Source: Paracoccaceae bacterium
GTDB lineage: Bacteria > Pseudomonadota > Alphaproteobacteria > Rhodobacterales > Rhodobacteraceae
DNA: 64,000 nucleotides
Reading direction: 5' to 3'
NCBI GenBank assembly: GCA_040830705.1
Contig: JBFOME010000004.1
Location: 3,283 to 67,282 of the forward strand
Position numbers and translations under genes: made by a program. Every line of letters begins with the position of its first letter. Within the stretch, counting starts at the first letter, position 1. Below, piece by piece: positions 1,433 through 64,000 of the stretch. Below the pieces are notes generated by a model that ran no database searches, was not told where the DNA came from, and saw only the letters and a program-made list of their open reading frames with translations.

Positions 1433-3574
1433 TCAGTATTTGACAAGGTCATGAAACGCCCCCCCGGCTGACATCAACGACTGGAAACTGCCGCGTTCGG
1501 TGACCTTGCCCTGATCAAGCACTAGGATTTCTTCGGAATCGCGGATCGTCGACAAACGATGCGCGATGATCAGGCAGGTGCACCCCCGCCGGCGGATATT
1601 CTGGTCGATCTTTTCTTCGACCTGCGCATCAAGCGCGCTGGTGGCCTCGTCCAGGATCAGAATACTGGGCTCAAGCGCCAGTGTGCGCGCGATCTCAAAA
1701 CGCTGTGCCTCCCCCCCGCTCAGATCGCGCCCGCCTTCGGAGAGCTGGCTTTGGTAGCCGCCGGGCCTGCGGATGATCAGATCATGAATCTCTGCATCTT
1801 TGGCCGCCTGTATCACGGTCTCCATCGAGATCGTGTCATTCCAAAGCGTGAGATTGTCATAGACCGTGCCCTCGAACAGGTTGGGTTCTTGTGCCACCCA
1901 CCCGATCGAACTGTCGCGCAGCGCTGGCGGGATTTCATCGCGGGTCATCCCATCATAGAGGATCTCGCCCTTGGTCGGATGATAGAGCCCCGCCACCATC
2001 TGACCGATCGTGGATTTGCCACTGCCCGTCGACCCGACCAGAGCAACACGCATGCCGGGCTGGATCACCATGTTCAGATCTTCGACCAGCAACGGCCCCG
2101 AGGTCGTGTAGCCAAAGCTGACATCCCTCAGCTCGATCCGCCCCGTCAGCTTCGCGGCGTCGCTGTCAGAGGCCTTGGCAGGCGTTACAAACTCTTCGGC
2201 GACGTCATGCTGCAGGATATCGTTGACCCGCGTCAGCGACGCACCAACACTCTGAAACTGGCTGACAAACTGGACAAGCCCCTCGAACGGGCGCGAGAAC
2301 GCCGTCATCAGCGCGAGAAACGCGACCAGACCGCCAACGGTCAACTGTCCGTTGACAATGTGGAAACTGCCGACGCCGAGTACGATGGCGGTGGTCAGCG
2401 ATGTCGCGACGCTGGGCAGTATGCCGATCACATTCATGATCCTGCCAAGCTGCTGTTCGGTATTGACCATCCTTGCATGGGTACCGGACCACCTTGAAAA
2501 GACCTGGTCTTCGCTGGCTCCGGCCTTGATCGTGTCAATCGCGCGCGTGCTGAAGACACCCACACCCATCAGCAGAGCGTTCTCGATTTCCAGTTTCAGA
2601 CTGGTATTGCGCAAAGCCCGCTGCGCCTGAAAACACCCGATCGCGACAAACAAGTTCACGGCGATACCGATCACCGTCAGCAGTGGATCATAGCCAAACA
2701 TCACAATCGCGAAAAAGACCACGGTAAGAAAGTTAGCAAAGTTTCGGCAAAGCTGCGTGCCGAGCATCTGCGCAATTGAATCGTTCGACAACATGCGGGC
2801 GACCAGATCGCCGGGGCTGCGTTGCGCAAAGAACCGGACCGGTAGTTTCATCAGCCGAGATTGGAAAAAGGCCGCACCAGTGAGGGACATCTTGTTTTCG
2901 ATCTGCATCAGGGACCATTCCTGCAGCCAGACCATGACGGCATAAGCGATCACCGCCACGATCATCGAAAACAGCAGGGGCCGCAGCACGTCGGTCGCGC
3001 CTTGAATCAGCACCGTATCGATAAAAATCTTCGAAAACGTTGGAACGGTAAGTCCCGGCACGATCAGCAGCAGGCTGACAAGCCCTAGCATCACAAGGCC
3101 GGATTTGACCTGCACAAGCCGCATTTTCATGTCCGCCCATGCGCTGGTCCGCCGTCCGGTACGCTTGAAATCCTTTGTGGGTTCAAAGCTGAGGGCGAGG
3201 CCGGTGAACCCATCGCTGAACGCCTCAAGACTTATCGTTCTGGGGCCTGTTTCGGGGTCGTTGATGTAAACGCAATTCTTACCGAACCCTTCGACAACCA
3301 GGAAGTGACGGAACTCCCAGAATACGATGAAGGGCGCTTTCATCTCGGCCACCTTTTCAAGGCTGAGGCGGAACCCCTTGGCCGTCAGATCATGCTCGCG
3401 CGCAGCACGCACCACATCGGCGGCGTTGCACCCGTCCCTTGAGACGTTGCAGGTGACGCGCAGCTCATCCAGCGGAACCCATTTGCCGAAATACTCCAGC
3501 ATGATCGCCAGCGAGGCCGCGCCGCACTCGACCGCCTCCATCTGGATGACGGTTGGTGTTCTGACCCGGCTCAT
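1433..3574 (-). CDS. NHLM bacteriocin system ABC transporter with C39 peptidase domain
   Basis: N-terminal VRTPTVIQMEAVECGAASL (catalytic Cys) and FWEFRHFLVVEG (His); TM domain; Walker A GSTGSGKS; signature LSGGEAQR; Walker B ILILDEATSALD. Confidence 0.93.
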   Translation of the reverse strand: MSRVRTPTVIQMEAVECGAASLAIMLEYFGKWVPLDELRVTCNVSRDGCNAADVVRAAREHDLTAKGFRLSLEKVAEMKAPFIVFWEFRHFLVVEGFGKNCVYINDPETGPRTISLEAFSDGFTGLALSFEPTKDFKRTGRRTSAWADMKMRLVQVKSGLVMLGLVSLLLIVPGLTVPTFSKIFIDTVLIQGATDVLRPLLFSMIVAVIAYAVMVWLQEWSLMQIENKMSLTGAAFFQSRLMKLPVRFFAQRSPGDLVARMLSNDSIAQMLGTQLCRNFANFLTVVFFAIVMFGYDPLLTVIGIAVNLFVAIGCFQAQRALRNTSLKLEIENALLMGVGVFSTRAIDTIKAGASEDQVFSRWSGTHARMVNTEQQLGRIMNVIGILPSVATSLTTAIVLGVGSFHIVNGQLTVGGLVAFLALMTAFSRPFEGLVQFVSQFQSVGASLTRVNDILQHDVAEEFVTPAKASDSDAAKLTGRIELRDVSFGYTTSGPLLVEDLNMVIQPGMRVALVGSTGSGKSTIGQMVAGLYHPTKGEILYDGMTRDEIPPALRDSSIGWVAQEPNLFEGTVYDNLTLWNDTISMETVIQAAKDAEIHDLIIRRPGGYQSQLSEGGRDLSGGEAQRFEIARTLALEPSILILDEATSALDAQVEEKIDQNIRRRGCTCLIIAHRLSTIRDSEEILVLDQGKVTERGSFQSLMSAGGAFHDLVKY

Positions 3575-15770: not shown

Positions 15771-15872
15771 CGCATAGCGGTGTGAACTCATAGAACCGGC
15801 TTTGGTCTTCCGTGAACCAGTTTCCTTGACGCTCGAAACTCACCCCTGGCCGCCAGCATCGCGAGGTGTTTT

Positions 15873-15901
15873 GATCCAAACGCACGATGCGCGTTTGGAT
15901 C
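15873..15901. repeat. Perfect 11-bp inverted repeat (hairpin)
   Basis: GATCCAAACGC-ACGATGC-GCGTTTGGATC in the ICL-BCCT intergenic region. Confidence 0.6.
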
Positions 15902-16025
15902 GAATGAAAACTATTGAAGTTCGGTTCCAATTTTAGGATGTTGAGTGTCTCGCGCGCGCGTTGCGTGGGACCTAACTCGGCATTGCTGCGTGCAGAGCAG
16001 TCAACACTTGAGAGACCGGGACTTT

Positions 16026-17849
16026 ATGGCGCTTGAGGACCCTTTCACTGACCTCGAAATAGAAACGCAGTCGTCCGGCTTTTACGAGGGGTATAGTCTG
16101 CCGATCGCCTTGGTCAGCAAATTGACTGTGACGCTATTGGTTCTTTGGGCGTTGATCTGGCCGTTCTCCGCAAATGATACGTTGCGATCATGGAAGACGG
16201 GATTGCTGATTGAATTCAACAGATTCTACGACACATCAGTAGCGCTCTATGCGATCTTCCTGTTTCTCGTCGCACTCATTCCCGCGACCGGACGAATGCG
16301 GCTTGGAGCAGACGACGACGGGCCTGAGTTTTCCAATTTCTCCTGGTTTTCGATGATGTTTGGCGCGGGGCTGGGCGTGGGATTAATGGTTTACGCGACG
16401 GCCGAGCCTCTGGGTCTGTGGGAAACGAACCCGTTGACCATTTCGGGCGAGGTCGACCCCATGAGCGAAGACGCAATCGAAGGGGCCTACCGATATACTT
16501 TCCTGCACACAGGCTTTCACGCTTGGGCCATCTATGTCGTCACCGGCCTGAGCCTCGCCTACTACGCCTATACGCGCGACATGCCTCTGACCATCCGAGC
16601 GGCATTGACCCCTTTGCTGGGAGAGTACTCCAATGGCTTCGCGGGTCACGTGATCGACATTCTGGGGGTTGTTGCAACCATACTCGGCGTTGCGGTGACG
16701 ATTGGCTACGGCGTATCCCAATTGGTCGATGGCGCGTTTCTGATCACCGGAGCCAACTGGCTCTTGGAAAACACCGGGACTACGATGGCACCCTCTACGG
16801 CGGGGCTGATAGCCGCGCTGGTATTGGTCATGATGATGTCAACGCTTTCTGCAGTTTCCGGGGTCGGGCGCGGCGTCAAGTACCTGTCTAACCTCAACCT
16901 GGTTCTGTCGCTGGCCTTGTTGTTGGTCTTCATCATCTTCGGCTCGTTCGCCTTCGCCACTACAACCTATGCTGCGGCGCTGGTGGATTATGTTGCCAAC
17001 TTCATTCCGTTGAGCTTCCACGCCTACAGCCCGATATCAGAAACCGAATTTGCATCCGTGCTGCCCGCCGAGGCCACACCATTTGTCGGTGAGCTATTTG
17101 CCGGAGCGACAGATGCCTGGGGAACCAAAGAGGCTTTTCTTGACGGGTTGAGCAATGATGCTGCGGCCTTGTCCGATGCGACCAAGTCTGCCGCATATGA
17201 TGCGGGCAAAGAAGGGCGATTGTTTGGCTGGCAGTCTGGCTGGACAACGTTCTACTGGGCCTGGTGGATTGCCTTCTCGCCCTTTGTTGGGCTGTTTCTT
17301 GCGCGTATCTCGAAAGGTCGGACGGTACGCGAATTCATCCTGGGCGCAGTCATCGCGCCGTCATTGGTCTGTTTCGCATGGATGACGATCCTGGGCGGGT
17401 CTGCCATTGATTTGGAACTGAACGGCGACGCAAACGGGGCAATCCTCGCGGCGTCTACAACGGCAACGCTTTTTGCCACGCTCAGCGAAATGATCTCGGG
17501 TAATTTCCTGACCATCGTCAGTGTGATGTGTGTCATTCTGACCATGACGTTTCTTGTGACCTCTGCCGATTCAGGCATCTTGGTCATGAACACCATCATG
17601 TCGGGCGGATCAGAGGAGACCGGTCTTAAACACCGTATCATCTGGGGTGGATTGCTGACTATGGTGATCGGAACGTTGCTGCTGGCCGGAGGCGGTGGGT
17701 TGGAGGCGCTTACCAATTCGATGATCATCGGAGCGCTGCCCTTTAGCGTTATTTTGCTGCTAATGTGCGTGTCTCTGGCCAAGGCGATGATAAACGATTT
17801 GCGGCGTTCAAATTCTGACGAACAATCGGATACATTATCAGGCACATAG
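16026..17849 (+). CDS. BCCT-family (betaine/choline/carnitine) transporter
   Basis: FSNFSWFSMMFGAGLGVGLM, HAWAIY, WTTFYWAWWIAFSPFVGLFLARISKGRT, TSADSG; start placed at ATG 16026. Confidence 0.93.
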   Translation: MALEDPFTDLEIETQSSGFYEGYSLPIALVSKLTVTLLVLWALIWPFSANDTLRSWKTGLLIEFNRFYDTSVALYAIFLFLVALIPATGRMRLGADDDGPEFSNFSWFSMMFGAGLGVGLMVYATAEPLGLWETNPLTISGEVDPMSEDAIEGAYRYTFLHTGFHAWAIYVVTGLSLAYYAYTRDMPLTIRAALTPLLGEYSNGFAGHVIDILGVVATILGVAVTIGYGVSQLVDGAFLITGANWLLENTGTTMAPSTAGLIAALVLVMMMSTLSAVSGVGRGVKYLSNLNLVLSLALLLVFIIFGSFAFATTTYAAALVDYVANFIPLSFHAYSPISETEFASVLPAEATPFVGELFAGATDAWGTKEAFLDGLSNDAAALSDATKSAAYDAGKEGRLFGWQSGWTTFYWAWWIAFSPFVGLFLARISKGRTVREFILGAVIAPSLVCFAWMTILGGSAIDLELNGDANGAILAASTTATLFATLSEMISGNFLTIVSVMCVILTMTFLVTSADSGILVMNTIMSGGSEETGLKHRIIWGGLLTMVIGTLLLAGGGGLEALTNSMIIGALPFSVILLLMCVSLAKAMINDLRRSNSDEQSDTLSGT

Positions 17850-18120
17850 CCGAGTCTGGACCCACACTGCCGAATTGTTAATTTTGTCCGGGTTTTTCTT
17901 AATCTTTGTCATGAGATTATCTTAATGTGACGAGGCTATGTCGGTCTGGATCGTCGAGGGATGAACGCCGCATCTTCCTCTCGCCAGCGATCGCTTACCG
18001 TTGCGACTACGACAAATAACAGACCGCTCGAAGACGACGATCTTCGCGAGGCAGGTCAACGAGGTGTTCTGATATCGAGAGTGCGACGCACTCCCGAGAT
18101 ATGCCAAGAAAGGGTGCAAG

Positions 18121-20184
18121 ATGTTCGATGCAAAGGTCTACGCACCACTTTTTGAGCCGGTCCAACTGGGTCCAGTAATTGCAAAGAACCGCTTTTATCA
18201 GGTCCCTCATTGCACAGGGCTTGGTCATGTCCGCCCGCGCGCCGAAGCCGCGCTGCGAGGCATGAAGGCCGAAGGCGGATGGGGCGTTGTCTCGACACAG
18301 GAAACCGAGATCCACCCTACCTCGGATCTGTCACCATATGCCGAGGGGCGTCTTTGGGATGCGCGGGATGTGCCAGCCCTGCGGCTGATGACTGATGCCG
18401 TCCACGAACACGACGCGCTGGCCGCCATCCAGCTTGTGCATAACGGCAATCACGCGATGAACCTGCTGTCGCGGGCCCCTGTTCTGGCGCCCTCTGATAT
18501 GGCGATCAGCACAGCGCAACCGAAACAGGCGCGGGCGATGGACAAGGCTGATATCCGCGCCCTGCGGCGTTGGCACCGCGATGCTGCCCTGAGGGCGAAA
18601 GAGGCGGGCTTTGACATCATCTACGTCTATGCCGGGCACGGAATGACGCTGGCCCAGCACTTCCTGCTTTCGCATATGAATACCCGCAGTGACGAATATG
18701 GCGGTTCGCTGCAAAACCGCGTGCGGCTGACCCGAGAATTGCTGGAGGATACGCGAGAGGCGGTCGGCGACAGCTGCGCGGTTGCGCTTCGCTTCGCCAT
18801 TGACGAGATGCAGGGTCCCGACGGCATGCAGGCCGCCGAGGAAGGCCGCGCCGTGGTCGAATTGCTGGCAGACCTGCCCGACATCTGGGACGTGAATGTC
18901 TCTGACTGGTCCAACGATTCAGCGACCACGCGATTCCAGCCGCAGGATGGCTATCAGAACGAATACCTGTCCTTTGTGAAACAGGTAACCAACAAACCTG
19001 TCGTTGGTGTCGGACGTCTCACATCACCAGACATGATGATCTCGATGCTGCGGAAGGGGATCGTGGATCTGATCGGCGCGGCACGCCCGTCGATTGCCGA
19101 TCCATTTATTCCGTGCAAGATCGAGGAAGGGCGTATCGACGAAATCCGCGAATGTATCGGCTGCAACATCTGCGCTGCCTCCGATGCGCTTGGCATTCCA
19201 ATCCGCTGCACCCAGAATCCGACAATGGGCGAGGAATGGCGGCGCGGGTGGCATCCCGAGCGCATTACACCGCGCAAAAGTGCGGCCCAGACACTTGTCG
19301 TTGGCAGCGGTCCTGCGGGTCTAGAAACTGCGCTACAACTGGCGCGGCGCGGATATGACGTGACGCTGGCCGAGGCCGCATCGGAGTTCGGCGGCAGGGT
19401 CCTGCGGGAAAGCAGGCTACCGGGGCTCAGGGCCTGGGCTCGGGTTGCGGACTACCGGCTGCATGAATTGCAACAGCGCCCCAATGTTCAGATGTTCACT
19501 GAAAGCGCACTGGACGCCGCTCAGGTGGCCGAGCTGGGCATCCCGCATGTGTTCCTTGCCACCGGCGCAAGCTGGCGCGCCGATGGCCTTGGCCGCAACA
19601 CGCGCCGCCACCCTCCTCGGATCGAGCCATCCGCACGGGTCTTTACGCCCGACGACATCATGTCGGGCATCGCCCCTGAAGGCCCGGTCCTGGTCTATGA
19701 CGACGATCATATCTACATCGCCGGCGTGATCGCCGAAAAACTCGCGCGTGCGGGTTGCGAGGTGGTGTTCGTGACACCGGAAAGCCTTGTCTCCAGCTTC
19801 TCGGTCAACACGTTGGAACAGCATCGCATTCAGGCTCGGCTGATCGAATTGGGCGTCGACATCCGCTGCAATCAGGTGCTGCAAGCGGTCAATGGTCAAG
19901 AAGCAATTCTGACCTGTGGGTTTTCGGGTCGGCAAACCGGGATCGACTGCAACTCTGCCGTTCTGGTCACCGAACGTCATCGCAACACCGACCTGTTTGA
20001 CCAACTTCAGGGAACCGGGCTGGAAACGCTCGAACTCCTTGGCGATGCGGCAGCACCTGGCCTGATCGCGGATGCCGTCTTTTCGGGCCACCGCGCTGCG
20101 CGCGACTTCGAGCGGCCCAAAGTCGAAGCTGAACAAGACTGGTTCCGCCGGGAAATCACCGATCTGCGGGAGGATACGATATGA
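18121..20184 (+). CDS. Trimethylamine/histamine dehydrogenase-family iron-sulfur flavoenzyme
   Basis: RFYQVPHC (6-S-cysteinyl-FMN Cys), KAEGGW, YVYAGH, CIGCNIC...C [4Fe-4S], GEEWRRGWHPE, GSGPAG nucleotide-binding motif. Confidence 0.9.
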   Translation: MFDAKVYAPLFEPVQLGPVIAKNRFYQVPHCTGLGHVRPRAEAALRGMKAEGGWGVVSTQETEIHPTSDLSPYAEGRLWDARDVPALRLMTDAVHEHDALAAIQLVHNGNHAMNLLSRAPVLAPSDMAISTAQPKQARAMDKADIRALRRWHRDAALRAKEAGFDIIYVYAGHGMTLAQHFLLSHMNTRSDEYGGSLQNRVRLTRELLEDTREAVGDSCAVALRFAIDEMQGPDGMQAAEEGRAVVELLADLPDIWDVNVSDWSNDSATTRFQPQDGYQNEYLSFVKQVTNKPVVGVGRLTSPDMMISMLRKGIVDLIGAARPSIADPFIPCKIEEGRIDEIRECIGCNICAASDALGIPIRCTQNPTMGEEWRRGWHPERITPRKSAAQTLVVGSGPAGLETALQLARRGYDVTLAEAASEFGGRVLRESRLPGLRAWARVADYRLHELQQRPNVQMFTESALDAAQVAELGIPHVFLATGASWRADGLGRNTRRHPPRIEPSARVFTPDDIMSGIAPEGPVLVYDDDHIYIAGVIAEKLARAGCEVVFVTPESLVSSFSVNTLEQHRIQARLIELGVDIRCNQVLQAVNGQEAILTCGFSGRQTGIDCNSAVLVTERHRNTDLFDQLQGTGLETLELLGDAAAPGLIADAVFSGHRAARDFERPKVEAEQDWFRREITDLREDTI

Positions 20185-21773
20185 CCGATGCAACTCAAAC
20201 CCGGAAGACCGCGGGCCAAAGCTCTCCCCGCCGCCGCGGCGGTGGTCGCGCCGCACGCATCGCGTTGCAACAGGCGACAACCGGCAATGAGGCGGTGCGC
20301 GGCGGCCTGCCTGGCGGTCGCTATCGCCCGCTATCGCAGACGGATATGGAAAACATCCACCAAGCTGCATTGACAGTGCTCGAAGAGACTGGTTTGGCGG
20401 ATCACTTTCCCGAACTGCTGGATATTGTCTTGTCCCAGGGCGCCACGCTGAGCGAGCACAATCGCCTGTGCTTTCCGCGCGCGCTGATTGAGGATGTGCT
20501 ATCGAATGCCGCCAAGGAATACTACGTCTTTGCGCGCGGCGAACGCGCGGGCAAAGACGACATGCACTGCACGGCCGAGAGCGTCTATTTCGCGAATTCC
20601 GGTACTGCGGTCACCACATTTGACGCAAAGACACGATCTTACCGGCCCTCTGATCTGCGTGACATTTACGACTTTACCCGGCTCGTCGACAAACTGGACA
20701 ACATTCACATGCTGGGGGCCACGGTGTTGGCCACCGATGTCACCGATGACTTTGCCCATGACATGAACATGGTCTATGCCATGCTGTCGGCCAGCCAGAA
20801 ACCGGCTTGCCTGGCCTTTCGCGATCGCAGCCATATCCCACATGCCATCCGCATGTTCGATCTGGCCTCGGGCGGCGAAGGTGCGTTCATGAAGAAACCA
20901 TCGGTAATCTTCGGCGGCTGCCCCATCGTTTCACCCTTGCGCATCGGGCGCGAGAATATGGAGATCCTGATTGATACGGCCAAGCTGGGCCTGACCGTCG
21001 ATCTGGCGGTGCCACCACAGGCGGGGGCCACGGCACCCGCCACCCTGGCGGGCACGCTGGTACAGGCTGTGGCAGAAACTTTGGCCTGTGTCGCCATCGC
21101 CAACCTGATCACACCCGGTTGCCCCGTCAGCTTCGCGGCCTGGCCCTTCATTACCGATCTGCGCAGCGGTTCCTTCACGGGCGGCAGCGGCGAGCAGGCG
21201 TTGATTGGCGCGGCTGCGGTGCAGATGGGCAACTTCTATGGTCTGCCAACATCAGTTGGCGCGGGCATGACCGACGCGAAGCTACCAGATGCGCAATACG
21301 GGCTGGAAAAGGCGCTTGCCTTCGCACTGGCGGCCCATGCCGGGGCAAACCGGGTCTGCGAGTTCGGCGGCATGTTGGGAAGCCTGATGGGATGCAGCTT
21401 TGAAAGCATGGTTATCGACAATGAAGCGGGGGGCATGATCTTGCGCTCGCTGCGCGGCATTGAGGTGACGGACGAGACTATGGCCGTGGATGTCATCCAC
21501 AAATGCGCCATCGATCCCGGACACTTTCTTGGTAACCCGCATACGCTCAGCTTCATGAGTTCCGAGTTTGTGTACCCGCAGCTGATGGACCGCGAACGCA
21601 CCGATACATGGGAGAACCAGGGTCGCCTCGATCTGATGGAGCGGGCCCATGACAGCGCCGGTGCCATTCTAAATTCCCATTTCCCGAACTACTTCGGGTC
21701 GGCAGACCTTCAGGTCCGCGAGGAATTTCCGATTGTTTTGGGCACGGATGACATGCGCCACCCGAGGAAATGA
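20181..21773 (+). CDS. MttB-superfamily methyltransferase, non-pyrrolysine
   Basis: YRPLSQTDMENIH, SPLR, GATAPATLAGTLVQ, DLRSG, GAGMTDAKLPDAQ, PGHFLG; Met at the Pyl-equivalent position; ATGA overlap with the upstream gene. Confidence 0.92.
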   Translation: MTDATQTRKTAGQSSPRRRGGGRAARIALQQATTGNEAVRGGLPGGRYRPLSQTDMENIHQAALTVLEETGLADHFPELLDIVLSQGATLSEHNRLCFPRALIEDVLSNAAKEYYVFARGERAGKDDMHCTAESVYFANSGTAVTTFDAKTRSYRPSDLRDIYDFTRLVDKLDNIHMLGATVLATDVTDDFAHDMNMVYAMLSASQKPACLAFRDRSHIPHAIRMFDLASGGEGAFMKKPSVIFGGCPIVSPLRIGRENMEILIDTAKLGLTVDLAVPPQAGATAPATLAGTLVQAVAETLACVAIANLITPGCPVSFAAWPFITDLRSGSFTGGSGEQALIGAAAVQMGNFYGLPTSVGAGMTDAKLPDAQYGLEKALAFALAAHAGANRVCEFGGMLGSLMGCSFESMVIDNEAGGMILRSLRGIEVTDETMAVDVIHKCAIDPGHFLGNPHTLSFMSSEFVYPQLMDRERTDTWENQGRLDLMERAHDSAGAILNSHFPNYFGSADLQVREEFPIVLGTDDMRHPRK

Positions 21774-21781
21774 ACCCATTT

Positions 21782-21804
21782 TGGTCGGGCCAACGGCCCG
21801 ACCA
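21782..21804. terminator. Hairpin between convergent mttB and tcuB
   Basis: TGGTCGGGCC-AAC-GGCCCGACCA, perfect 10-bp stem. Confidence 0.6.
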
Positions 21805-21906: not shown

Positions 21907-22971
21907 CTATTCCCGGTATCTCTGCGCATTTCGCACCAATGCCGCTATTCGATAAAATCCGTGAGCCATCTTCGTGAACGGCGTAAGCAGGAAAAATGTC
22001 AAAACAGCCCCAAGATGTATGGCCAACAGCGCGGGCATCCACGTGGTACCACCCAACGCGTAGAGCATCAGGCCGCTCAGCCCCGTGAAGCCGAGCAGCA
22101 GGATGAAACCGATGTCTCCACCCCAGGCGCCAGGATCACCGAGTACACGGTCAGAACTCAGCTTCAGCTGCGCCATCCAGGCGCAGCCCAGCGTCAACAG
22201 AAGCCCGCCGGGGATACCCAGAAGTTTGGGCAGGGACCAGAACGGGTAGGGGGCCGGGCTGTTGAAGAGATAGTGCAGGACAGTCCCCGCACTTGTCGCT
22301 GCAAAGCAAAGCAGAAAGCCGTACATGATCGCTTGGTGGGCATAGCGGCGCGATTGCGAGAAGCGGTCTTCGTCCTCGAAATTACACCCCTCGCCATGTC
22401 CGGCAGCCAGATCCTTCATCCGGGCGGCGCTGCCGAGTGCGGCTGACAGATCGGCCAAAACAATCGGTTTGCCGCCCACGATGCGCCAGTACCTCCGCAG
22501 GCTGATGCCAACGCTCAACAATGGCAGCAAGAATGCCGGGGCAAAAAGCGCGACCATCGCGCCATGTGACATGACTGCATAGAATCCGTCCCCTCCGGCA
22601 GAGCCAAGGGCACGGATCGCCAGAAACATTAGTGCATAGCCCACCACAAGTGCCAGCGCGATGGCGCCGCCCTGACTGTGGAACCGGCGAGCGAGAGGCT
22701 GCGGCCAGGCTAGGTCTTCCCAACTGTCCCGGCGAACTTCTGCCAGAGCTTTGGGCAGGTTCAGGTCAAACTCGTGTGGCGCGGTGTACTGGCAGGCATA
22801 ATAGCAACCGCGGCAGTTGTGACAGAGGTTGGCCAGTTGTGTGATGTCCCCATCGGCAAAGGCACGCTGACTTTGAAGCGTCGGAAAAACCGAGCAGTAG
22901 CCTTCGCAATAACGACAGGCATTGCAGATCTCGGCCTGCCTGCGGGCCTCCTGGATCAAATCAATTTGCAT
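21907..22971 (-). CDS. tcuB: Tricarballylate utilisation 4Fe-4S membrane protein
   Basis: ICNACRYCEGYC and LCHNCRGCYYACQY Fe-S motifs, TM segments, FTKMAHGFYR; start placed at ATG 22971. Confidence 0.92.
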   Translation of the reverse strand: MQIDLIQEARRQAEICNACRYCEGYCSVFPTLQSQRAFADGDITQLANLCHNCRGCYYACQYTAPHEFDLNLPKALAEVRRDSWEDLAWPQPLARRFHSQGGAIALALVVGYALMFLAIRALGSAGGDGFYAVMSHGAMVALFAPAFLLPLLSVGISLRRYWRIVGGKPIVLADLSAALGSAARMKDLAAGHGEGCNFEDEDRFSQSRRYAHQAIMYGFLLCFAATSAGTVLHYLFNSPAPYPFWSLPKLLGIPGGLLLTLGCAWMAQLKLSSDRVLGDPGAWGGDIGFILLLGFTGLSGLMLYALGGTTWMPALLAIHLGAVLTFFLLTPFTKMAHGFYRIAALVRNAQRYRE

Positions 22972-24343
22972 AGGCTGCGGCCTCCCGCCCTGCGATGCGT
23001 CCAAAGACGGTTCCGATGGTCATGCCGAACCCGGCCAGATAGCCTTGACCAAGGATCGATCCGGCCATGGTCTCTCCGGCGGCCCAAAGGTTCTGGATCG
23101 GGCCATCGGCGTTAGAACATTGGGCAGTTTCGTCGACTTTCAGACCGAGATAGGTGAAGGTGACGCCGGTGCGCAGCGAATACCCATAATATGGTGGGTC
23201 ACAGATCGGACGGGCCCAGTTTGTCTTTGCGGGCGTGATACCGCTTGTTGCCACGCCATCCAGTTCGGTTGAATGGAAGGCTGAGGTATTCCCGCAAGCA
23301 TCGTTGAACTGCTCCACGGTTTTGCTGAGCTGAGCAGCTGGCAAGCCCATCATGCAAGCCAATTCCTCCAACGTGTCGGCCTTCAGCGGGGGGAACACAG
23401 ACGGCATGAACAGATCGAGCGACTTGCTGTCGATGATCACATAGGCCACCTGATCCGGTTGCACGGCGACCAGCCGCCCCCAGATCGCATAGCGTTTGGG
23501 CCAGACATCTTCGCCCTCGTCATAGAAACGCTCACCATTCTTGTTGACGACAATCGAGAAGGGCACACAATCCAGCCGCGTGACGATGCCGCCATCGAAT
23601 TTTGGTGCACGTCCGTCGACGGCAACCGCATGGCACTGGGTCGGGTCACCCACGCTTTCGACGCCCTGATCCAACAGATCGGCCAGAACGACGCCCCGAT
23701 TGAAAGGCGTGCCGCGGATCAGGAAGTTTTTTGCCGCTGGCCCCCAGGCCCGCGCAAGCCAATCGGTATCTGCCTGAAAGCCACCCGAAGCAACAATCAC
23801 GGCGCTGGGTTCGATACGGTGGTCCTTGCCCGCATGGGTATAGTCGACCCGCTCTATCCGATCCCCATTCAGTTCCAAATGGGTCACATGCGCCTCGTAA
23901 AGCACATCGACACCCAGCGCCTCGGCGGTCCGGTAATAGGCGTTCACCAGAGCCTTCCCGCCGCCCATAAAAAACGCGTTTGTGCGTGCCAGAGACAGCG
24001 TGCCAGAGAGCGACGGCTGAAACCGCACGCCATGCGCCCGCATCCACGGCAGGCACTCTTCCGAAGTGCGGATCGCGAGGCGGGCCAAGGTTTCGTCTGT
24101 GTTGCCCCCGGTGACTTTCAGCAGATCGTCGAGATACTCCTCTTCCCCATAGCTTTCGACCAAGGGCCCAAGCGGCCCTGTATGGGCGCAGCGGAAGTTA
24201 CGCGTATGGCGCGAATTGCCGCCACGATAGGGCTTTTGTGCGGTTTCAAGGATCAGCACACGAGCCCCGGCCTCTGCTGCCGTGATGGCCGCGCACAAGG
24301 CGGCGTTGCCACCTCCGATTACTGCAATGTCATATTTCGTCAT
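22961..24343 (-). CDS. tcuA: FAD-dependent tricarballylate dehydrogenase
   Basis: IGGGNAALCAA, RGGNSRHTRNFR, ARTNAFFMGGGKAL, HAVAVDGRAPKFDGGIVTRLD, GYLAGFGMTIG. Confidence 0.93.
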   Translation of the reverse strand: MTKYDIAVIGGGNAALCAAITAAEAGARVLILETAQKPYRGGNSRHTRNFRCAHTGPLGPLVESYGEEEYLDDLLKVTGGNTDETLARLAIRTSEECLPWMRAHGVRFQPSLSGTLSLARTNAFFMGGGKALVNAYYRTAEALGVDVLYEAHVTHLELNGDRIERVDYTHAGKDHRIEPSAVIVASGGFQADTDWLARAWGPAAKNFLIRGTPFNRGVVLADLLDQGVESVGDPTQCHAVAVDGRAPKFDGGIVTRLDCVPFSIVVNKNGERFYDEGEDVWPKRYAIWGRLVAVQPDQVAYVIIDSKSLDLFMPSVFPPLKADTLEELACMMGLPAAQLSKTVEQFNDACGNTSAFHSTELDGVATSGITPAKTNWARPICDPPYYGYSLRTGVTFTYLGLKVDETAQCSNADGPIQNLWAAGETMAGSILGQGYLAGFGMTIGTVFGRIAGREAAAYAN

Positions 24344-59792: not shown

Positions 59793-60788
59793 CTAAACTC
59801 TTTTGCTAGAGGCCAGATCTTTGGATTGCTCTAGCTCCACGCTATGGTTTCCGATTTTCCCCATATGACGCGCAATTTGTTGTGCCAGTATCTGTTTGCA
59901 CAATTCCGCGACGGCCGCTGGGAGGCCCCGCAACTCCTCTTTCCTAGCAACAACCGTCAACGTGCGCGACAACCCTGAGACTGGCAGTTCTTGAAATCGC
60001 AGGTTCATGTTTTCCACGAGACCATCGATCAATAATGTCGGTGTCAAAAGGCTAAATCCCTGTCCTATCGAAACACAGGAGGTCACCATACTGGAGCGAT
60101 CTGCTTGTATGACTGTGTCGGGCTCAAACCGCAGTCGGCGCAGATGCTGGGCAATCTGCCGTCCCGCATTTGTCGTATCCCCAAAACGTACCAACGGAAG
60201 CCTCGTCTGGATCGCTTCTAGGCTTTCGGTCGGGCCGTCGTATGTTTCGGGGAGCACCAAAAGGTATCTCTCAGTCAGAACATGATGACGCTCCAATCCG
60301 TCCATGTCTAAAAATGGGTTCGACGTAATCGCCAAATCCGCCTGCTTGGTGCGCAGCAGATGCTCATGATTACCGCTTTGCCCGGCATGCAGAGTGATGT
60401 CTTCGACGTTGAACACCCTTTGCGCAAGATCGATCAATGATGGCGTCAGGGTCGTCGCAATGGAGGCTTGGATGCCCACCCTCAGCAGCGTCAGGGATTG
60501 TTCGCCGACATGCCGCAATTCGGTTTCCATATCGGACAGTGCATCCAGTATCTTCTGCGCTTTGCCATGCAGTCGCGCACCAGCATATGTTAGCCGAGCA
60601 GGTCGCGTACTGCGATCGAGCAGAGTCGTGCCAAACGCTTTCTCCAACGCAGTGATGTGTTGGGATGCTGCGGGCTGTGAGAGACCGAGCAGTTTCGCAC
60701 CGGCTCGCATTTGACCTGTTTCTGCAACCGCAACGAAAACCTCTAACGAGCGCATGAGACTCGGTGAAATCTTGTGGCGATCGAGCAC
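59793..60788 (-). CDS. LysR-family regulator
   Basis: LEVFVAVAETGQMRAGAKLLGLSQPAASQHITALE HTH; divergent from mttB. Confidence 0.88.
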   Translation of the reverse strand: MLDRHKISPSLMRSLEVFVAVAETGQMRAGAKLLGLSQPAASQHITALEKAFGTTLLDRSTRPARLTYAGARLHGKAQKILDALSDMETELRHVGEQSLTLLRVGIQASIATTLTPSLIDLAQRVFNVEDITLHAGQSGNHEHLLRTKQADLAITSNPFLDMDGLERHHVLTERYLLVLPETYDGPTESLEAIQTRLPLVRFGDTTNAGRQIAQHLRRLRFEPDTVIQADRSSMVTSCVSIGQGFSLLTPTLLIDGLVENMNLRFQELPVSGLSRTLTVVARKEELRGLPAAVAELCKQILAQQIARHMGKIGNHSVELEQSKDLASSKRV

Positions 60789-60867
60789 GACTCATCCTTA
60801 GTATAAATTTTTCTGATACTATTTGGTTTTTCTTGGGTTCCGTCAATCGCTGCGGCACCATGGGTAT

Positions 60868-62397
60868 ATGTCACGCCCACGTACATCTCGTCGCCAAAAA
60901 GCTTCAGCCAAACACACCCAAGATGAGGCTCGTGCGCCTTTCATTCTTCGCAAGCTTTCGACCTTCAATGTACTCAGCGACGCCGGGCTAGAACAGATCG
61001 AGTCAAATGCGGACACCATCCTTGCCGAAACCGGGATGGAGTTTCAGGACGACCCCGAAATCCTCCGGATATTCACTAATGCAGGTTGCGATGTGGATGG
61101 CACCCGAGTTCGGTTTCCTACGGGCTTCTGTCACAGGAAGATTACCGCCACGGCGCCGGGCCAGTTCACGCAGCATGCCCGCAACCCCAAGAACAGTGTG
61201 CAGCTTGGCGGGGAAGCGACGGTTCTTTGCCCATCTTGGGGGCCGCCTTTCGTACATGATCTGGATCGCGGTCGGCGCTATGCGAATTACGAAGACTTCA
61301 CCGATTTGGTGAAATTGCACCACACTTTACCGTGGCTGCATCATTCGGGCGGCGTAGTTTGTGAACCCGTTGATCTTCCCGCCAATAAGCGTCATCTGGA
61401 TATGCTCCACGCCCATATTCGGTACTCTGACCGCGCGTTCATGGGCGCCTTTATCGGGGCCGAGCACGCAGGCCACGCAATCGACATAGCACGGATCGTT
61501 TTTGGCGACGAATTCGTGGCAGAAAACCCGGTACTCTATTGCGTGTCCAACACAAACGCGCCCTTGGTGATGGATAGCCACATGTCGGGCGCGCTGAAAA
61601 CCTATGCGCGGGCGGGGCAGCCTGTGGCCTGCACACCTTGGGTGCTGACAGGGGCGATGTCGCCGGCGACGGTCGCTGGGACACTCGCGCAAGTGCTGGC
61701 CGAAACCATGGCGACGATGACTCTTACCCAACTGGTGAACCCGGGCGCGCCATGCCTGATGGGCAGCTTTGCATCGACCATGTCAATGAAGTCCGGCGCG
61801 CCGACCTTTGGAACGCCAGAGGCAGGGTTGATGGTTCTGGCGGCCGGGCAGCTTGCGCGCAGGCTTGGAGTGCCGTTTCACACCGTGGGCACTCTCAGTT
61901 CGTCCAAACTGCCCGACGCGCAAAGCCAGCAAGAGGCCGCTTGGGGCCTAATGATGTCGATGTTTGCCGGTGCCAATCTGATCAACCATGCGACTGGCTG
62001 GCTCGAAGGGGGGCTGGTGACCTCGTTTGAAAAAACCGTGATTGATCATGATCTTTGCGGCAAGATCGGGCGCTTCTTTGATGGGATCGACATGAGCGAG
62101 AATGCGCAGGCAATGGAGGCGATTGCCAGGACTGGGCCGGGGCAACACTTCCTTGGGTCTGAACATACGCAGGCCAATTTCATGACCGCGCTCTTCCGCC
62201 CGTGGACACCTGATGACAATTCGTTCGAACAATGGCACGCGGCTGGCGAACAGGATGCCGCTGCGCGGGCCAATGTTATCTGGAAGGAACGTTTGGCAGG
62301 ATATAAAGACCCCGGCCTCGACCCCGACGTAGATGCGGCCCTGAAAGACTACATCGCCGCGCGCAAGGCCGAAAAACCAGATCAGGACTATTTCTGA
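60868..62397 (+). CDS. MttB-superfamily methyltransferase, non-pyrrolysine (second paralogue)
   Basis: GPPFVHDLDRGRR, CEPVDLP, GAMSPATVAGTLAQ, KSGAPTFGTPE, GTLSSSKLPDAQ, GWLEGGL; Leu at the Pyl-equivalent position. Confidence 0.93.
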   Translation: MSRPRTSRRQKASAKHTQDEARAPFILRKLSTFNVLSDAGLEQIESNADTILAETGMEFQDDPEILRIFTNAGCDVDGTRVRFPTGFCHRKITATAPGQFTQHARNPKNSVQLGGEATVLCPSWGPPFVHDLDRGRRYANYEDFTDLVKLHHTLPWLHHSGGVVCEPVDLPANKRHLDMLHAHIRYSDRAFMGAFIGAEHAGHAIDIARIVFGDEFVAENPVLYCVSNTNAPLVMDSHMSGALKTYARAGQPVACTPWVLTGAMSPATVAGTLAQVLAETMATMTLTQLVNPGAPCLMGSFASTMSMKSGAPTFGTPEAGLMVLAAGQLARRLGVPFHTVGTLSSSKLPDAQSQQEAAWGLMMSMFAGANLINHATGWLEGGLVTSFEKTVIDHDLCGKIGRFFDGIDMSENAQAMEAIARTGPGQHFLGSEHTQANFMTALFRPWTPDDNSFEQWHAAGEQDAAARANVIWKERLAGYKDPGLDPDVDAALKDYIAARKAEKPDQDYF

Positions 62398-63134
62398 TGG
62401 GCCTGACTTTCCGCAATCTCGCGCATCCGAACATAGAACGGCACGTGATGCGCAGTTATGTCGGTGTAGGGCTCACCGAGCTGGTCAAGCTCCGCATGGA
62501 AGTCGAATATTTCAGGAGCTTTGATCGCGCCGCTTTGCAGCACTTCGGTGTGCCAGCTTTGCACGGAACACCATCCATCCGGCACAGTGTCGTTCCAGGT
62601 GAATGCCTGGTCCAGGAACGCAAGCCCGGCATGCGCCCAGTAGCGGCGCAACGCAGTTTGCGGATCGTTGCGCAACTGATCTGCAGTGATCACCAACGGG
62701 GTATGTCCCAGCTCGGTCAATGCGCCATAAAGCCTGTATTGCGCCTCATGCCCCAACTCCAATCGCGTGAATTGCGGGTCACGTTTTGCATAAGACAGCG
62801 CAGCTTCGATGGGGTTGCGCACCAGAAAGGCATGGGACATTTCGCCCGCAGACCCTGCGTCGCGCGACAACCGGTCCGCGACGTAATAGGCCATATCCTT
62901 GAAAAAAACCGGGCCGCTCTGTGCTGTTTCGCGGATCATTGCGCGGATCTCATCATAGGTGACGGGATGTCCCGGTTCTGGCGAGAAGCCCGGAAAAAGC
63001 CGGTCTGTGGTCGTCAGGTAGTGGTGATACATGAACGGTTCGTGCTGGACCGACAGATCGCCACGCTCACGCATGATCCGTTCAAACGCCGTCGAAACCG
63101 AGCACGGTTGGCACCACAAAGCATGTATCCTCAT
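62388..63134 (-). CDS. Sulfotransferase-like P-loop protein
   Basis: LWCQPCSVSTAFERIMRERGD, HEPF, FFKDMAYY, FLVRNP, W...WH; family normally reads P-R-S at the N-terminal motif. Confidence 0.75.
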   Translation of the reverse strand: MRIHALWCQPCSVSTAFERIMRERGDLSVQHEPFMYHHYLTTTDRLFPGFSPEPGHPVTYDEIRAMIRETAQSGPVFFKDMAYYVADRLSRDAGSAGEMSHAFLVRNPIEAALSYAKRDPQFTRLELGHEAQYRLYGALTELGHTPLVITADQLRNDPQTALRRYWAHAGLAFLDQAFTWNDTVPDGWCSVQSWHTEVLQSGAIKAPEIFDFHAELDQLGEPYTDITAHHVPFYVRMREIAESQAHQK

Positions 63135-63181
63135 CCGGTTAGCCTAACGACGACTGAAAGCTTGCCTCAACGGAGGCTTGT

Positions 63182-64000
63182 ATGAGCCGCAAATTGATCA
63201 TCGGCGGCGGAGCGATCGGTCTCAGCGTGGCTTATCATTTGGCAAAACGCGGCGCGCAGGACGTGACTCTGCTGGAACGCAACCAGCTGACGTCGGGCAC
63301 CTCTTGGCATGCGGCCGGGATTGTGGGGCCTCTGCGCGCAACGCCCAATATGACTACGCTCGCCTCTGCGGCGCTGGAGGTCTTTCCCGCGCTGGAGGCT
63401 GAAACCGGTATGTCCACCGGATATCGCCGCACTGGGGGGTATTGGTTGGCGCGCGAACCGGCGCGGCTGGATGAACTGCACCGGATTGCCGACTTGGGTG
63501 CGACGCAATGGCTGACGCCAGCGGTAATTGCTGCAGGCGAAATACACATGCCCCTGCTCGATCTGTCAGAGCATGTCGGAGCTTTGCATGTGCCCGAAGA
63601 CGCCAATGTGAACCCGGTGGACCTTTGCATGGCATATGCCCGTGCCGCAAAGAACCTCGGCGTAACGATCCGTGAAGGGATTGAGGTCAAAACCGTTGTC
63701 ACAAAAAACGGGATAGCCGAGGGCGTGGCACTTGCTAGCGGCACTACTTTGGAGGCCGACCAGGTCGTCATCGCCACAGGAGCCTGGTCGCGAGAGCTGG
63801 CTGCGACGGCCGGGGTTGCGCTGCCGCTTCAAGCGGTTGAGCACATGTATGTCGTGACAGAAACCATCCCCGATCTACCAGACCCCTTCCCCGTGATCCG
63901 CGATCTGGATCGCGGCATCTATATCAAGGGAGATGCCGGAAAACTGGTGATTGGCGGCTTCGAACCGGACGCCAAATGTTGGAACCCATACGGGCCGGAA
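63182..64000 (+). CDS. GcvT-family FAD oxidoreductase (sarcosine/dimethylglycine dehydrogenase-like), partial at right edge
   Basis: Not in the ORF track. Manual translation: MSRKLIIGGGAIGLSVAYHLA...LLERNQLTSGTSWHAAG...VNPVDLCMAYA...ATGAWS...VEHMYVVTE...IRDLD; open to base 64000. Confidence 0.9.
   Translation, partial: MSRKLIIGGGAIGLSVAYHLAKRGAQDVTLLERNQLTSGTSWHAAGIVGPLRATPNMTTLASAALEVFPALEAETGMSTGYRRTGGYWLAREPARLDELHRIADLGATQWLTPAVIAAGEIHMPLLDLSEHVGALHVPEDANVNPVDLCMAYARAAKNLGVTIREGIEVKTVVTKNGIAEGVALASGTTLEADQVVIATGAWSRELAATAGVALPLQAVEHMYVVTETIPDLPDPFPVIRDLDRGIYIKGDAGKLVIGGFEPDAKCWNPYGPE

Follow-up and report, generated by a model that had tools for sequence, protein, structure and literature searches.

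A predicted uptake and demethylation unit for quaternary amines in a Paracoccaceae bacterium, built on a histamine/trimethylamine dehydrogenase-type flavoenzyme and a non-pyrrolysine MttB-family methyltransferase

Introduction

Several bacterial systems are known in which a quaternary amine loses a methyl group and the tertiary amine that results is passed to a flavoprotein. For stachydrine in Sinorhizobium meliloti (Stc2-StcD) and glycine betaine in Pseudomonas (GbcAB-DgcAB), a Rieske N-demethylase is paired with an N-methyl amine demethylase from the old yellow enzyme (OYE)/2-enoate-reductase family, which carries flavin mononucleotide (FMN) and an Fe-S center. In Ruegeria pomeroyi DSS-3 the glycine betaine demethylase/split methionine synthase MtgBCD(E) depends on a methyltransferase gene of Pfam family PF06253 that lies apart from the gene for the one shared corrinoid protein, MtgC, an arrangement that has been shown genetically (Mausz et al. 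2025, PMC12478193). Here we describe a locus which, to judge from its genes, works like these three systems, yet whose enzymes depart from histamine dehydrogenase (HADH), trimethylamine dehydrogenase (TMADH), the pyrrolysine (Pyl)-containing MttB and MtgB alike. It comprises three forward-strand genes at 15945-21773 of the window, by which we mean the whole 64,000-nucleotide stretch analyzed (positions 3,283 to 67,282 of contig JBFOME010000004.1, assembly GCA_040830705.1), from a Paracoccaceae bacterium of the same organism group as R. pomeroyi. They code for a BCCT-family carrier, a flavoprotein amine dehydrogenase (P0001) and an MttB-superfamily methyltransferase (P0002), and we read them, with moderate confidence, as a unit for the uptake and demethylation of a quaternary ammonium compound, which would bear no acidic group.

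The family of P0001 includes TMADH, which carries out N-demethylation, HADH, which oxidatively deaminates primary amines, and 6-hydroxypseudooxynicotine amine oxidase, which cleaves an N-methyl secondary amine at its non-methyl C-N bond. The last of these has been structurally characterized (PMC11759058), and the solved HADHs take dications, namely agmatine, putrescine and 1,3-diaminopropane (PMC10180351). The characterized MttB-family enzymes without pyrrolysine are MtgB, MtcB, MtyB, MtpB and MthB of Desulfitobacterium and Eubacterium limosum. MtgB holds the quaternary nitrogen of glycine betaine with Tyr97 and Phe356 and its carboxylate with Arg312 and His348, and the substitutions R312L and H348E each abolish activity (PMC13080624). 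Arg312 is kept in MtcB, MtyB, MtpB and MthB, and their substrates, carnitine, gamma-butyrobetaine and proline betaine as well as phosphocholine, carry an acidic group in every case (PMC13080624).

Roseobacters possess up to ten MttB paralogs, and a substrate is known only for the glycine betaine enzymes; the authors of the R. pomeroyi study noted up to seven, possibly handling other methylated compounds (PMC12478193). Our literature search found no paper that joins 'MttB' with 'histamine dehydrogenase', nor one on the MttB/Rieske/TMADH-family module of roseobacters described below, and the supplements of PMC12478193 gave no match for the names of these proteins.

The flavoenzyme

P0001 (687 aa; 18121-20184, forward strand) aligns over residues 7-683 with the structures 6DE6 (E 6e-220), 3K30 (E 1e-215), 6L6J (E 2e-199) and TMADH 1DJN (E 9e-153), the two solved histamine dehydrogenases, from Rhizobium sp. 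4-9 (6DE6) and Nocardioides simplex (3K30), being the best matches and the TMADH of Methylophilus methylotrophus (1DJN/2TMD) the last. The protein matches PF00724 and PF07992. HMMER alignments place Cys31 on the FMN-linking cysteine (HADH Cys35, TMADH Cys30) and Tyr170/His173/Asp266 on the TMADH triad Tyr169/His172/Asp267, and the chain contains a 4Fe-4S motif, CX2CX2CX11C, at 345-363 and the ADP-site motif GSGPAG at 395. By its full-length homology and cofactor residues P0001 can be placed in the TMADH/HADH cluster of the OYE 2-enoate-reductase subfamily, the predicted cofactors being 6-S-cysteinyl-FMN, a 4Fe-4S cluster and ADP. Membership of this cluster sets P0001 apart from the flavoproteins of Stc2-StcD and GbcAB-DgcAB; it is only ~30% identical to the other long OYE-type paralogs of its own genome, which we take to be of the DgcA/StcD type. 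With TMADH it would have in common the fold, cofactors, catalytic residues and, presumably, the oxidative N-dealkylation of tertiary amines.

The substrate pocket departs from both models. Two of the three residues that form the TMADH aromatic bowl (Tyr60, Trp264, Trp355) are lost in the alignment to 1DJN, where Glu61 and Asp355 replace Tyr60 and Trp355 and Trp263 takes the place of Trp264. HADH has Gln65 at the first of these positions and, at the last, Asp358 in the sequence CVSGD, to which CAASD corresponds in P0001. The proposed histamine site of 3K30 consists of Gln65, Ile74, Phe77, Glu79, Asn115, Tyr181, Trp267 and Asp358 (PMC10180351), and the residues of P0001 at these eight positions are Glu61, Leu70, Tyr73, Glu75, His111, Met175, Trp263 and Asp355. 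The equivalents of Trp267, Glu79 and Asp358 are therefore retained, whereas four of the eight are changed non-conservatively (Gln65 to Glu, Phe77 to Tyr, Asn115 to His, Tyr181 to Met). Positions 73 and 111 of P0001 correspond to the specificity positions 72 and 110 of the Rhizobium sp. histamine dehydrogenase (Rsp HDH), an enzyme whose specificity is tuned by two positions (PMC10180351). The full pocket signature reads C31, Q60-E61, L70, Y73, E75, H111, M175, W263 and D355, and L70, Y/F73, E75, H111, M175 and D355 form the signature of the clade to which P0001 belongs (see below).

Because the aromatic bowl is lost, P0001 does not look like a plain dehydrogenase of trimethylamine (TMA) or dimethylamine (DMA), and because half of the histamine-site residues are changed it is not a convincing histamine dehydrogenase. 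An initial annotation of this stretch, made by eye, had already listed the cysteinyl-FMN Cys, the Tyr/His pair, the Fe-S cysteines and the Glu and Asp at the positions of TMADH Tyr60 and Trp355, and had set the enzyme apart from plain TMA/DMA dehydrogenases; the alignments bear it out on each of these points. In three MttB-linked members of the clade (L050, L058, L064) Ala stands at the position of the FMN-linking Cys, as it does in 6L6J, and the covalent FMN link therefore appears dispensable in part of the clade.

The methyltransferase

The start codon of P0002 (530 aa; 20181-21773, forward strand) overlaps the stop codon of P0001 in an ATGA at 20181-20184, as initially annotated, an arrangement that suggests translational coupling; a Shine-Dalgarno-like stretch, GGGAGGA, lies 6 nt 5' of the ATG. 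P0002 scores 337 bits on PF06253, covering model positions 1-476 of 500, and matches the structures 2QNE/9YCE (E 1e-60 to 1e-61) and 7XCL (E 3e-50). It reaches 357 bits on TIGR02369, the model of Pyl-type TMA methyltransferases, against a cut-off of 525, and the pyrrolysine position of Methanosarcina MttB (7XCL) is occupied by Met363, encoded by ATG in a frame without internal stop, the same residue that had been read there by eye. P0002 can thus be assigned to the MttB superfamily but not to its Pyl-type TMA methyltransferases. As with MtgB and its four relatives, the fold would be the PF06253 TIM barrel without pyrrolysine, and methylation of a corrinoid with a quaternary amine would be expected.

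It is in the residues around the substrate that P0002 differs from the five characterized enzymes. In an ungapped HMMER alignment with 9YCE/2QNE, the positions of MtgB Y97, R312, H348 and F356 are filled by Gly141, Ser358, Glu394 and Leu402, so that the glycine betaine-binding residues of MtgB are missing from P0002. Ser358, Glu394 and Met363 are invariant across all P0002 orthologs aligned. All five characterized enzymes keep Arg312 and act on substrates with an acidic group, whereas P0002, in an aerobe, has the pair Ser358/Glu394, and this replacement of a basic pair speaks against a substrate with an acidic group. A hydroxyl or a second positive charge would agree with the Ser/Glu pair.

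Conservation and linkage of the pair

A survey of 251 Rhodobacteraceae genomes, each from a different genus, turned up close orthologs of P0001 (62-74% identity) in five genera. A P0002 ortholog lies directly downstream in two of them (G208, with 74% identity for the flavoenzyme and 80% for MttB, and G015, with 68% and 67%), and in the other three (G003, G071, G148) the directly downstream gene codes for a Rieske/Ring_hydroxyl_A oxygenase. The two genes are adjacent in three of four other species of the same GTDB genus, and the stop/start junction coincides in two congeneric genomes (G251, G252) and in the nearest relative of the locus, L020. Eighty more loci came from a scan of prokaryotic species, each represented by one genome, and an MttB ortholog (58-90% identity) was found directly downstream of the flavoenzyme in 17 related loci.

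In a FastTree phylogeny of 92 homologs, one clade of 47 (support 99) contains all 33 flavoenzymes that are linked to a demethylase gene. Fifteen of these adjoin a Rieske gene, 13, that of the window included, an MttB gene, and five have both, with Rieske-linked and MttB-linked members interleaved inside the clade; at least three of the 14 unlinked members are at contig ends. Outside the clade none of 40 flavoenzymes has an adjacent Rieske or MttB gene. The association of P0001 with P0002 thus goes beyond chance, being both conserved and clade-specific, and the earlier proposal that the two genes make up a conserved functional unit for a methylated amine is strengthened by it.

Orthologs of P0001 with 89-90% identity are found in Ruegeria jejuensis and R. 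discodermiae, and on this ground the organism itself can be taken as a Ruegeria. P0002 orthologs labeled as R. pomeroyi have recent MCE/WP accessions and no SPO locus tags, and are probably not from strain DSS-3. In public data the flavoenzyme clade comprises over 120 clusters of sequences with >=70% identity. The flavoenzyme-MttB pair was also seen in genomes of sponge symbionts (L052, L053, L056 and L058, belonging to Poriferihabitaceae, Spongiihabitans and a sponge-derived gammaproteobacterial bin), carriers that hint at a host-derived substrate.

Gene content of related loci

Unbiased clustering of all open reading frames (ORFs) in 43 loci of the clade returned a small set of recurrent families. 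The flavoenzyme is present in all 43, and is accompanied by an ABC ATPase in 22, a BetI-type (BetI-like) TetR repressor in 21, a Rieske oxygenase in 20, two ABC permeases in 19 each, MttB in 17, a PotD/PotF-like binding protein in 16, a class-III aminotransferase in ten and a BCCT carrier in four. The Rieske protein of the relatives is nearest to the stachydrine demethylase Stc2 (3VCA/4QUP, E 6e-71) and, by NCBIfam, to the glycine betaine monooxygenase GbcA, although under the cut-off of that model. The transaminase is nearest to 3I5T, followed by putrescine/polyamine:pyruvate transaminases, and the ABC binding protein is weakly PotD/PotF-like.

These 20 loci, with a Stc2/GbcA-like oxygenase beside an FMN/4Fe-4S flavoprotein, resemble Stc2-StcD and GbcA-DgcA, although no gene for a Rieske reductase (ferredoxin reductase) is conserved across them. 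The Rieske gene is within about 90 nt of the flavoenzyme gene or overlaps it in L021, L024, L031-L033, L035, L037, L062 and others. The sister lineage, represented by L021 and L062 (both Ruegeria), combines ABC importer, flavoenzyme, Rieske oxygenase, MttB and transaminase, and the window together with L020 represents a reduced form, with BCCT, flavoenzyme and MttB.

The importer

The module had initially been taken to consist of two genes, and the carrier directly upstream had been missed. This gene (15945-17849, forward strand) codes for a BCCT-family importer of betaine type with 634 aa (PF02028, E 3e-145), which has the Trp-box signature GWTTFYWAWWIAFSPFVG as well as the motifs AGLGVG and WAWWIAF. 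Its best NCBIfam model is that of betaine BCCT carriers, with a score of 406 against a cut-off of 650, and it remains under the cut-off of every substrate-specific NCBIfam model. The order BCCT-flavoenzyme-MttB is shared with L020, and an ortholog of the carrier (83-84%) stands next to the complete cluster in L029 and L040, a further two Ruegeria loci; on account of the latter we count it as the probable uptake component of the module. A spacer of 271 nt separates its stop codon from the start of P0001 on the same strand. Ahead of the Trp-box helix, at about residues 365-430, the carrier has an acidic, Ala-rich insertion of ~65 aa, which splits the Pfam and NCBIfam matches in two.

Corrinoid machinery of the genome

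The lack of an adjacent corrinoid protein gene was among the initial observations on the locus. The observation itself stands and extends to the whole contig, on which no PF02310 corrinoid domain was found, the three matches of the genome lying on contigs C7, C11 and C16. It is no anomaly, since a genome search located one shared MtgC elsewhere, and in R. pomeroyi too this is the norm. The genome has a single small MtgC-like corrinoid protein (232 aa, B12-binding_2 and B12-binding domains; C11:64657-65355) adjoined by a DUF1638 gene (C11:65543-66190), together with a gene for a RamA-type activase (RACo_C_ter; C11:12219-13031) and two Pterin_bind genes (C11:488428-489153 and C6:183693-184382). 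The complete MtgBCD-type set of MtgC-like protein, pterin-binding methyltransferase, RamA and DUF1638 is thus present, and MtgD, RamA and DUF1638 are common to this genome and that of R. pomeroyi.

P0002 is one of ten PF06253 proteins of the genome, the genes of which are distributed over contigs C2, C4, C6, C10, C11, C14 and C21. In five, both of the positions that bind the acidic group in MtgB are basic, as Arg/His in four and as His/His in the second MttB of the window, and these are the highest Pfam scorers of the ten. The other five, P0002 and the products of C10:94174-95718, C14:30637-32172, C11:34470-36176 and C21:246745-248235, have lost both basic residues. P0002 differs from the MtgBCD system in belonging to another subfamily, ~25-28% identical to the basic-pair paralogs of its own genome, in having neither the Arg nor the His that binds glycine betaine, and in its apparent translational coupling to a TMADH/HADH-family dehydrogenase.

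Proposed mechanism and substrate

We propose the following scheme, in which the substrate class, the order and regiochemistry of the steps and the electron acceptor are those that we infer. The BCCT carrier would import the quaternary ammonium compound, and P0002 would move one of its N-methyl groups to the Co(I) form of the MtgC encoded on contig C11. On the model of R. pomeroyi MtgBCD, the parts of which are present, a pterin-binding enzyme of MtgD type would hand the methyl group on to tetrahydrofolate, and RamA and DUF1638 would keep the cobalamin reduced. The first step would accordingly be cobalamin-dependent and not, as in Stc2-StcD and GbcAB-DgcAB, oxygen-dependent. At its 6-S-cysteinyl-FMN, P0001 would then oxidize a C-N bond of the tertiary amine so formed, and the electrons would leave by way of the 4Fe-4S cluster for an external acceptor, for instance electron-transferring flavoprotein. 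Hydrolysis of the iminium could take one of two courses. It may yield formaldehyde and a secondary amine, a TMADH-like N-demethylation that might be repeated, or else an aldehyde and dimethylamine, through cleavage of a non-methyl C-N bond as in enzymes of the 6-hydroxypseudooxynicotine type. In relatives a Rieske N-demethylase would replace or join MttB, and an omega-transaminase of polyamine type would take off the final primary amine. The initial annotation had envisaged sequential demethylation and oxidative deamination. Demethylation followed by flavoprotein oxidation fits all of the genomic contexts seen, but two chemistries are possible, and deamination is no likelier than the other, N-demethylation of the tertiary amine.

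The substrate is probably a cationic quaternary amine, and not a classical betaine, histamine or trimethylamine. Since the relatives have a polyamine-type binding protein and transaminase, and since acidic residues are found in both enzymes, our best guess is a cationic trimethylammonium compound resembling a di- or polyamine or an amino alcohol. No evidence favors histamine, N-methylhistamine or hordenine, which were among the compounds named at the outset, and the BetI-like, PotD-like, Stc2/GbcA-like and polyamine-type contexts indicate a quaternary ammonium compound.

A bolder version, which we offer only tentatively and think rather unlikely to hold in full, is that the clade as a whole represents a hybrid cobalamin/flavin route, with a Rieske component in relatives, for a class of marine metabolites to which no catabolism is assigned, cationic, non-acidic trimethylammonium compounds such as capped di- or polyamines and amino alcohols. 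The absence of a conserved reductase gene from the loci with a close-set Rieske gene leads us to propose that the flavoenzyme of these relatives may feed the two electrons from oxidation of the tertiary amine directly to the Rieske oxygenase, which would make the two a self-powered demethylase pair.

Several points weigh against the assignment of the unit to a non-acidic quaternary amine. Neither the Rieske oxygenase nor the PotD-like binding protein, the BetI-like repressor or the transaminase has an ortholog in the genome, and a pathway beyond the two steps is therefore not visible there. The residues of P0002 were mapped onto MtgB by sequence alignment and not on a structure, and in P0001 the acidic residues E61, E75 and D355 are common to the whole wider family and hence not diagnostic of the clade, while the regiochemistry of its step cannot be deduced from the sequence. 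The carrier is nearest to betaine-type carriers, which weakly favors a carboxylate betaine, and presumably has Gly at the position of BetP G153, where choline-type carriers have Asp, a weak lead in the same direction. The G153D variant of BetP binds choline (PMC3578728).

These observations on the carrier bring us to the alternative that survives best, although we regard it as unlikely. The two-step logic would be the same, but the substrate would be a classical zwitterionic betaine (glycine betaine, beta-alanine betaine, gamma-butyrobetaine, valerobetaine or trimethyllysine), and P0001 would serve as a functional analog of DgcA/StcD on the dimethylamino acid. The kinship of the carrier to betaine-type carriers and its Gly-rich AGLGVG motif would agree with this, as would the BetI-like repressors and the Stc2/GbcA-like Rieske proteins of the relatives, both of these enzymes acting on carboxylate betaines; the terminal omega-transaminase would suit beta-alanine, gamma-aminobutyrate or 5-aminovalerate. 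What tells against a betaine is that both acid-binding residues of MtgB are gone from P0002 and all its orthologs, where the change corresponding to H348E is one that kills MtgB, and that R312 is kept in every characterized non-Pyl member, including the gamma-butyrobetaine enzyme MtyB. The binding protein of the relatives is moreover of polyamine and not of OpuAC/ChoX type, and the genome already has five basic-pair MttB paralogs for such substrates.

Less probable again is a substrate with two ends, such as a trimethylated diamine, in which P0001 would deaminate a free primary or secondary amine in the manner of HADH and MttB would act independently on the trimethylammonium head. HADHs do oxidize primary amines that carry a cation at the far end (histamine, agmatine, putrescine, 1,3-diaminopropane), P0001 retains the acidic E75 and D355, and the PotD-like binding protein and polyamine-type transaminase of the relatives would suit such a compound. 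In the ten loci with both a transaminase and a dehydrogenase, however, one of the two would be superfluous if they served one and the same primary amine end, the clade is so strictly linked to quaternary-amine demethylases that the flavoenzyme seems to use their product, and the changes at four of eight histamine-site positions include the equivalents of Rsp HDH 72 and 110.

That P0001 is a true dehydrogenase of histamine or another biogenic amine, with an MttB that shares its operon but not its pathway, is very improbable. Its best structural matches are indeed the two HADHs, with E values of about 1e-215 to 1e-220; but the similarity to the solved HADHs appeared comparable with the 54-60% identity that P0001 shows to dozens of unlinked paralogs, the pocket is altered as described (Q65 to E, F77 to Y, N115 to H, Y181 to M), no histamine-pathway genes lie nearby, and the linkage to MttB or Rieske genes is clade-specific and conserved, which places P0001 in the context of quaternary-amine and not histamine catabolism. 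A trimethylamine system, with a TMA/DMA dehydrogenase and a TMA methyltransferase, as public annotations of the orthologs would have it ('trimethylamine dehydrogenase', 'trimethylamine methyltransferase family protein'), can be set aside as the least likely of all, given the loss of two bowl residues (Tyr60 to Glu, Trp355 to Asp), the Met in place of a pyrrolysine codon, the score of P0002 under the TIGR02369 cut-off and the betaine/polyamine type of the importer and regulators.

If the unit for a non-acidic quaternary amine is accepted, an orphan MttB paralog gains a defined partner enzyme, a defined clade and a predicted charge class of substrate. Identification of that substrate would add a route for the use of methylated nitrogen compounds and vitamin B12 by marine, sponge-associated and mollusc-associated bacteria, and would correct the widespread 'trimethylamine dehydrogenase' and 'trimethylamine methyltransferase' annotations. 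The interleaving of MttB-linked and Rieske-linked members on one flavoenzyme clade is plainly an instance in which demethylases that need oxygen and demethylases that do not have been swapped or combined.

Flanking elements and further MttB loci

Three inverted repeats frame the genes. The first (15870-15904, 14-nt arms, 7-nt spacer) lies ~40 nt 5' of the BCCT start and is a putative operator, and the second (18072-18100, 14-nt arms, 1-nt spacer) ends 20 nt 5' of the P0001 start, where it may act as an operator or leader hairpin. The third, a perfect 10-bp G+C-rich hairpin at 21782-21804, is found 9 nt 3' of the MttB stop between convergent ORFs, and despite having no T-run is likely to mark the end of the transcript. 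A scan of the sequence for promoter and terminator consensus sites gave no more sites than in shuffled sequence.

The convergent ORF at 21907-23004 (reverse strand, 365 aa) follows MttB in the position that is held by a cytochrome P450 gene in L020 and G015. It was considered as a P450 and ruled out, having no Pfam match, and tblastn gave no P450 match on the contig. Neighbors further upstream and downstream are unrelated by family, and include Ada, a PEP-mutase-family protein, an FAD_binding_2 protein, LysR and others. Of the sequencing runs listed for the DNA of the window, the only one that contains it in full is a mollusc metagenome, which may be its source, and none is an RNA run.

A second MttB operon occupies 59793-64000 of the window. 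It begins with a divergent LysR gene (59793-60788, reverse strand), followed by the second MttB paralog (60823-62397, forward strand), which has His/His at the positions of MtgB Arg312/His348, a 262-aa ORF without Pfam match (62397-63185) and a DAO-family flavoprotein gene, which starts at 63182 and is cut by the end of the window. Elsewhere in the genome, L100 (G000:C10:90000-100000) contains overlapping genes for MttB, a class-III transaminase and an enzyme resembling dimethylglycine dehydrogenase (DMGDH; DAO and GCV_T domains, 799 aa), and L102 (G000:C21:242000-253000) contains MttB, an SRPBCC protein, an arylmalonate-decarboxylase-like protein and a DMGDH-like enzyme of 802 aa. The MttB proteins of C10 and C21 belong to the class that has lost both acid-binding residues. 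From its gene content, the logic of demethylation followed by oxidation recurs at C10, at C21 and in the second operon of the window, in each case with flavoproteins of other families.

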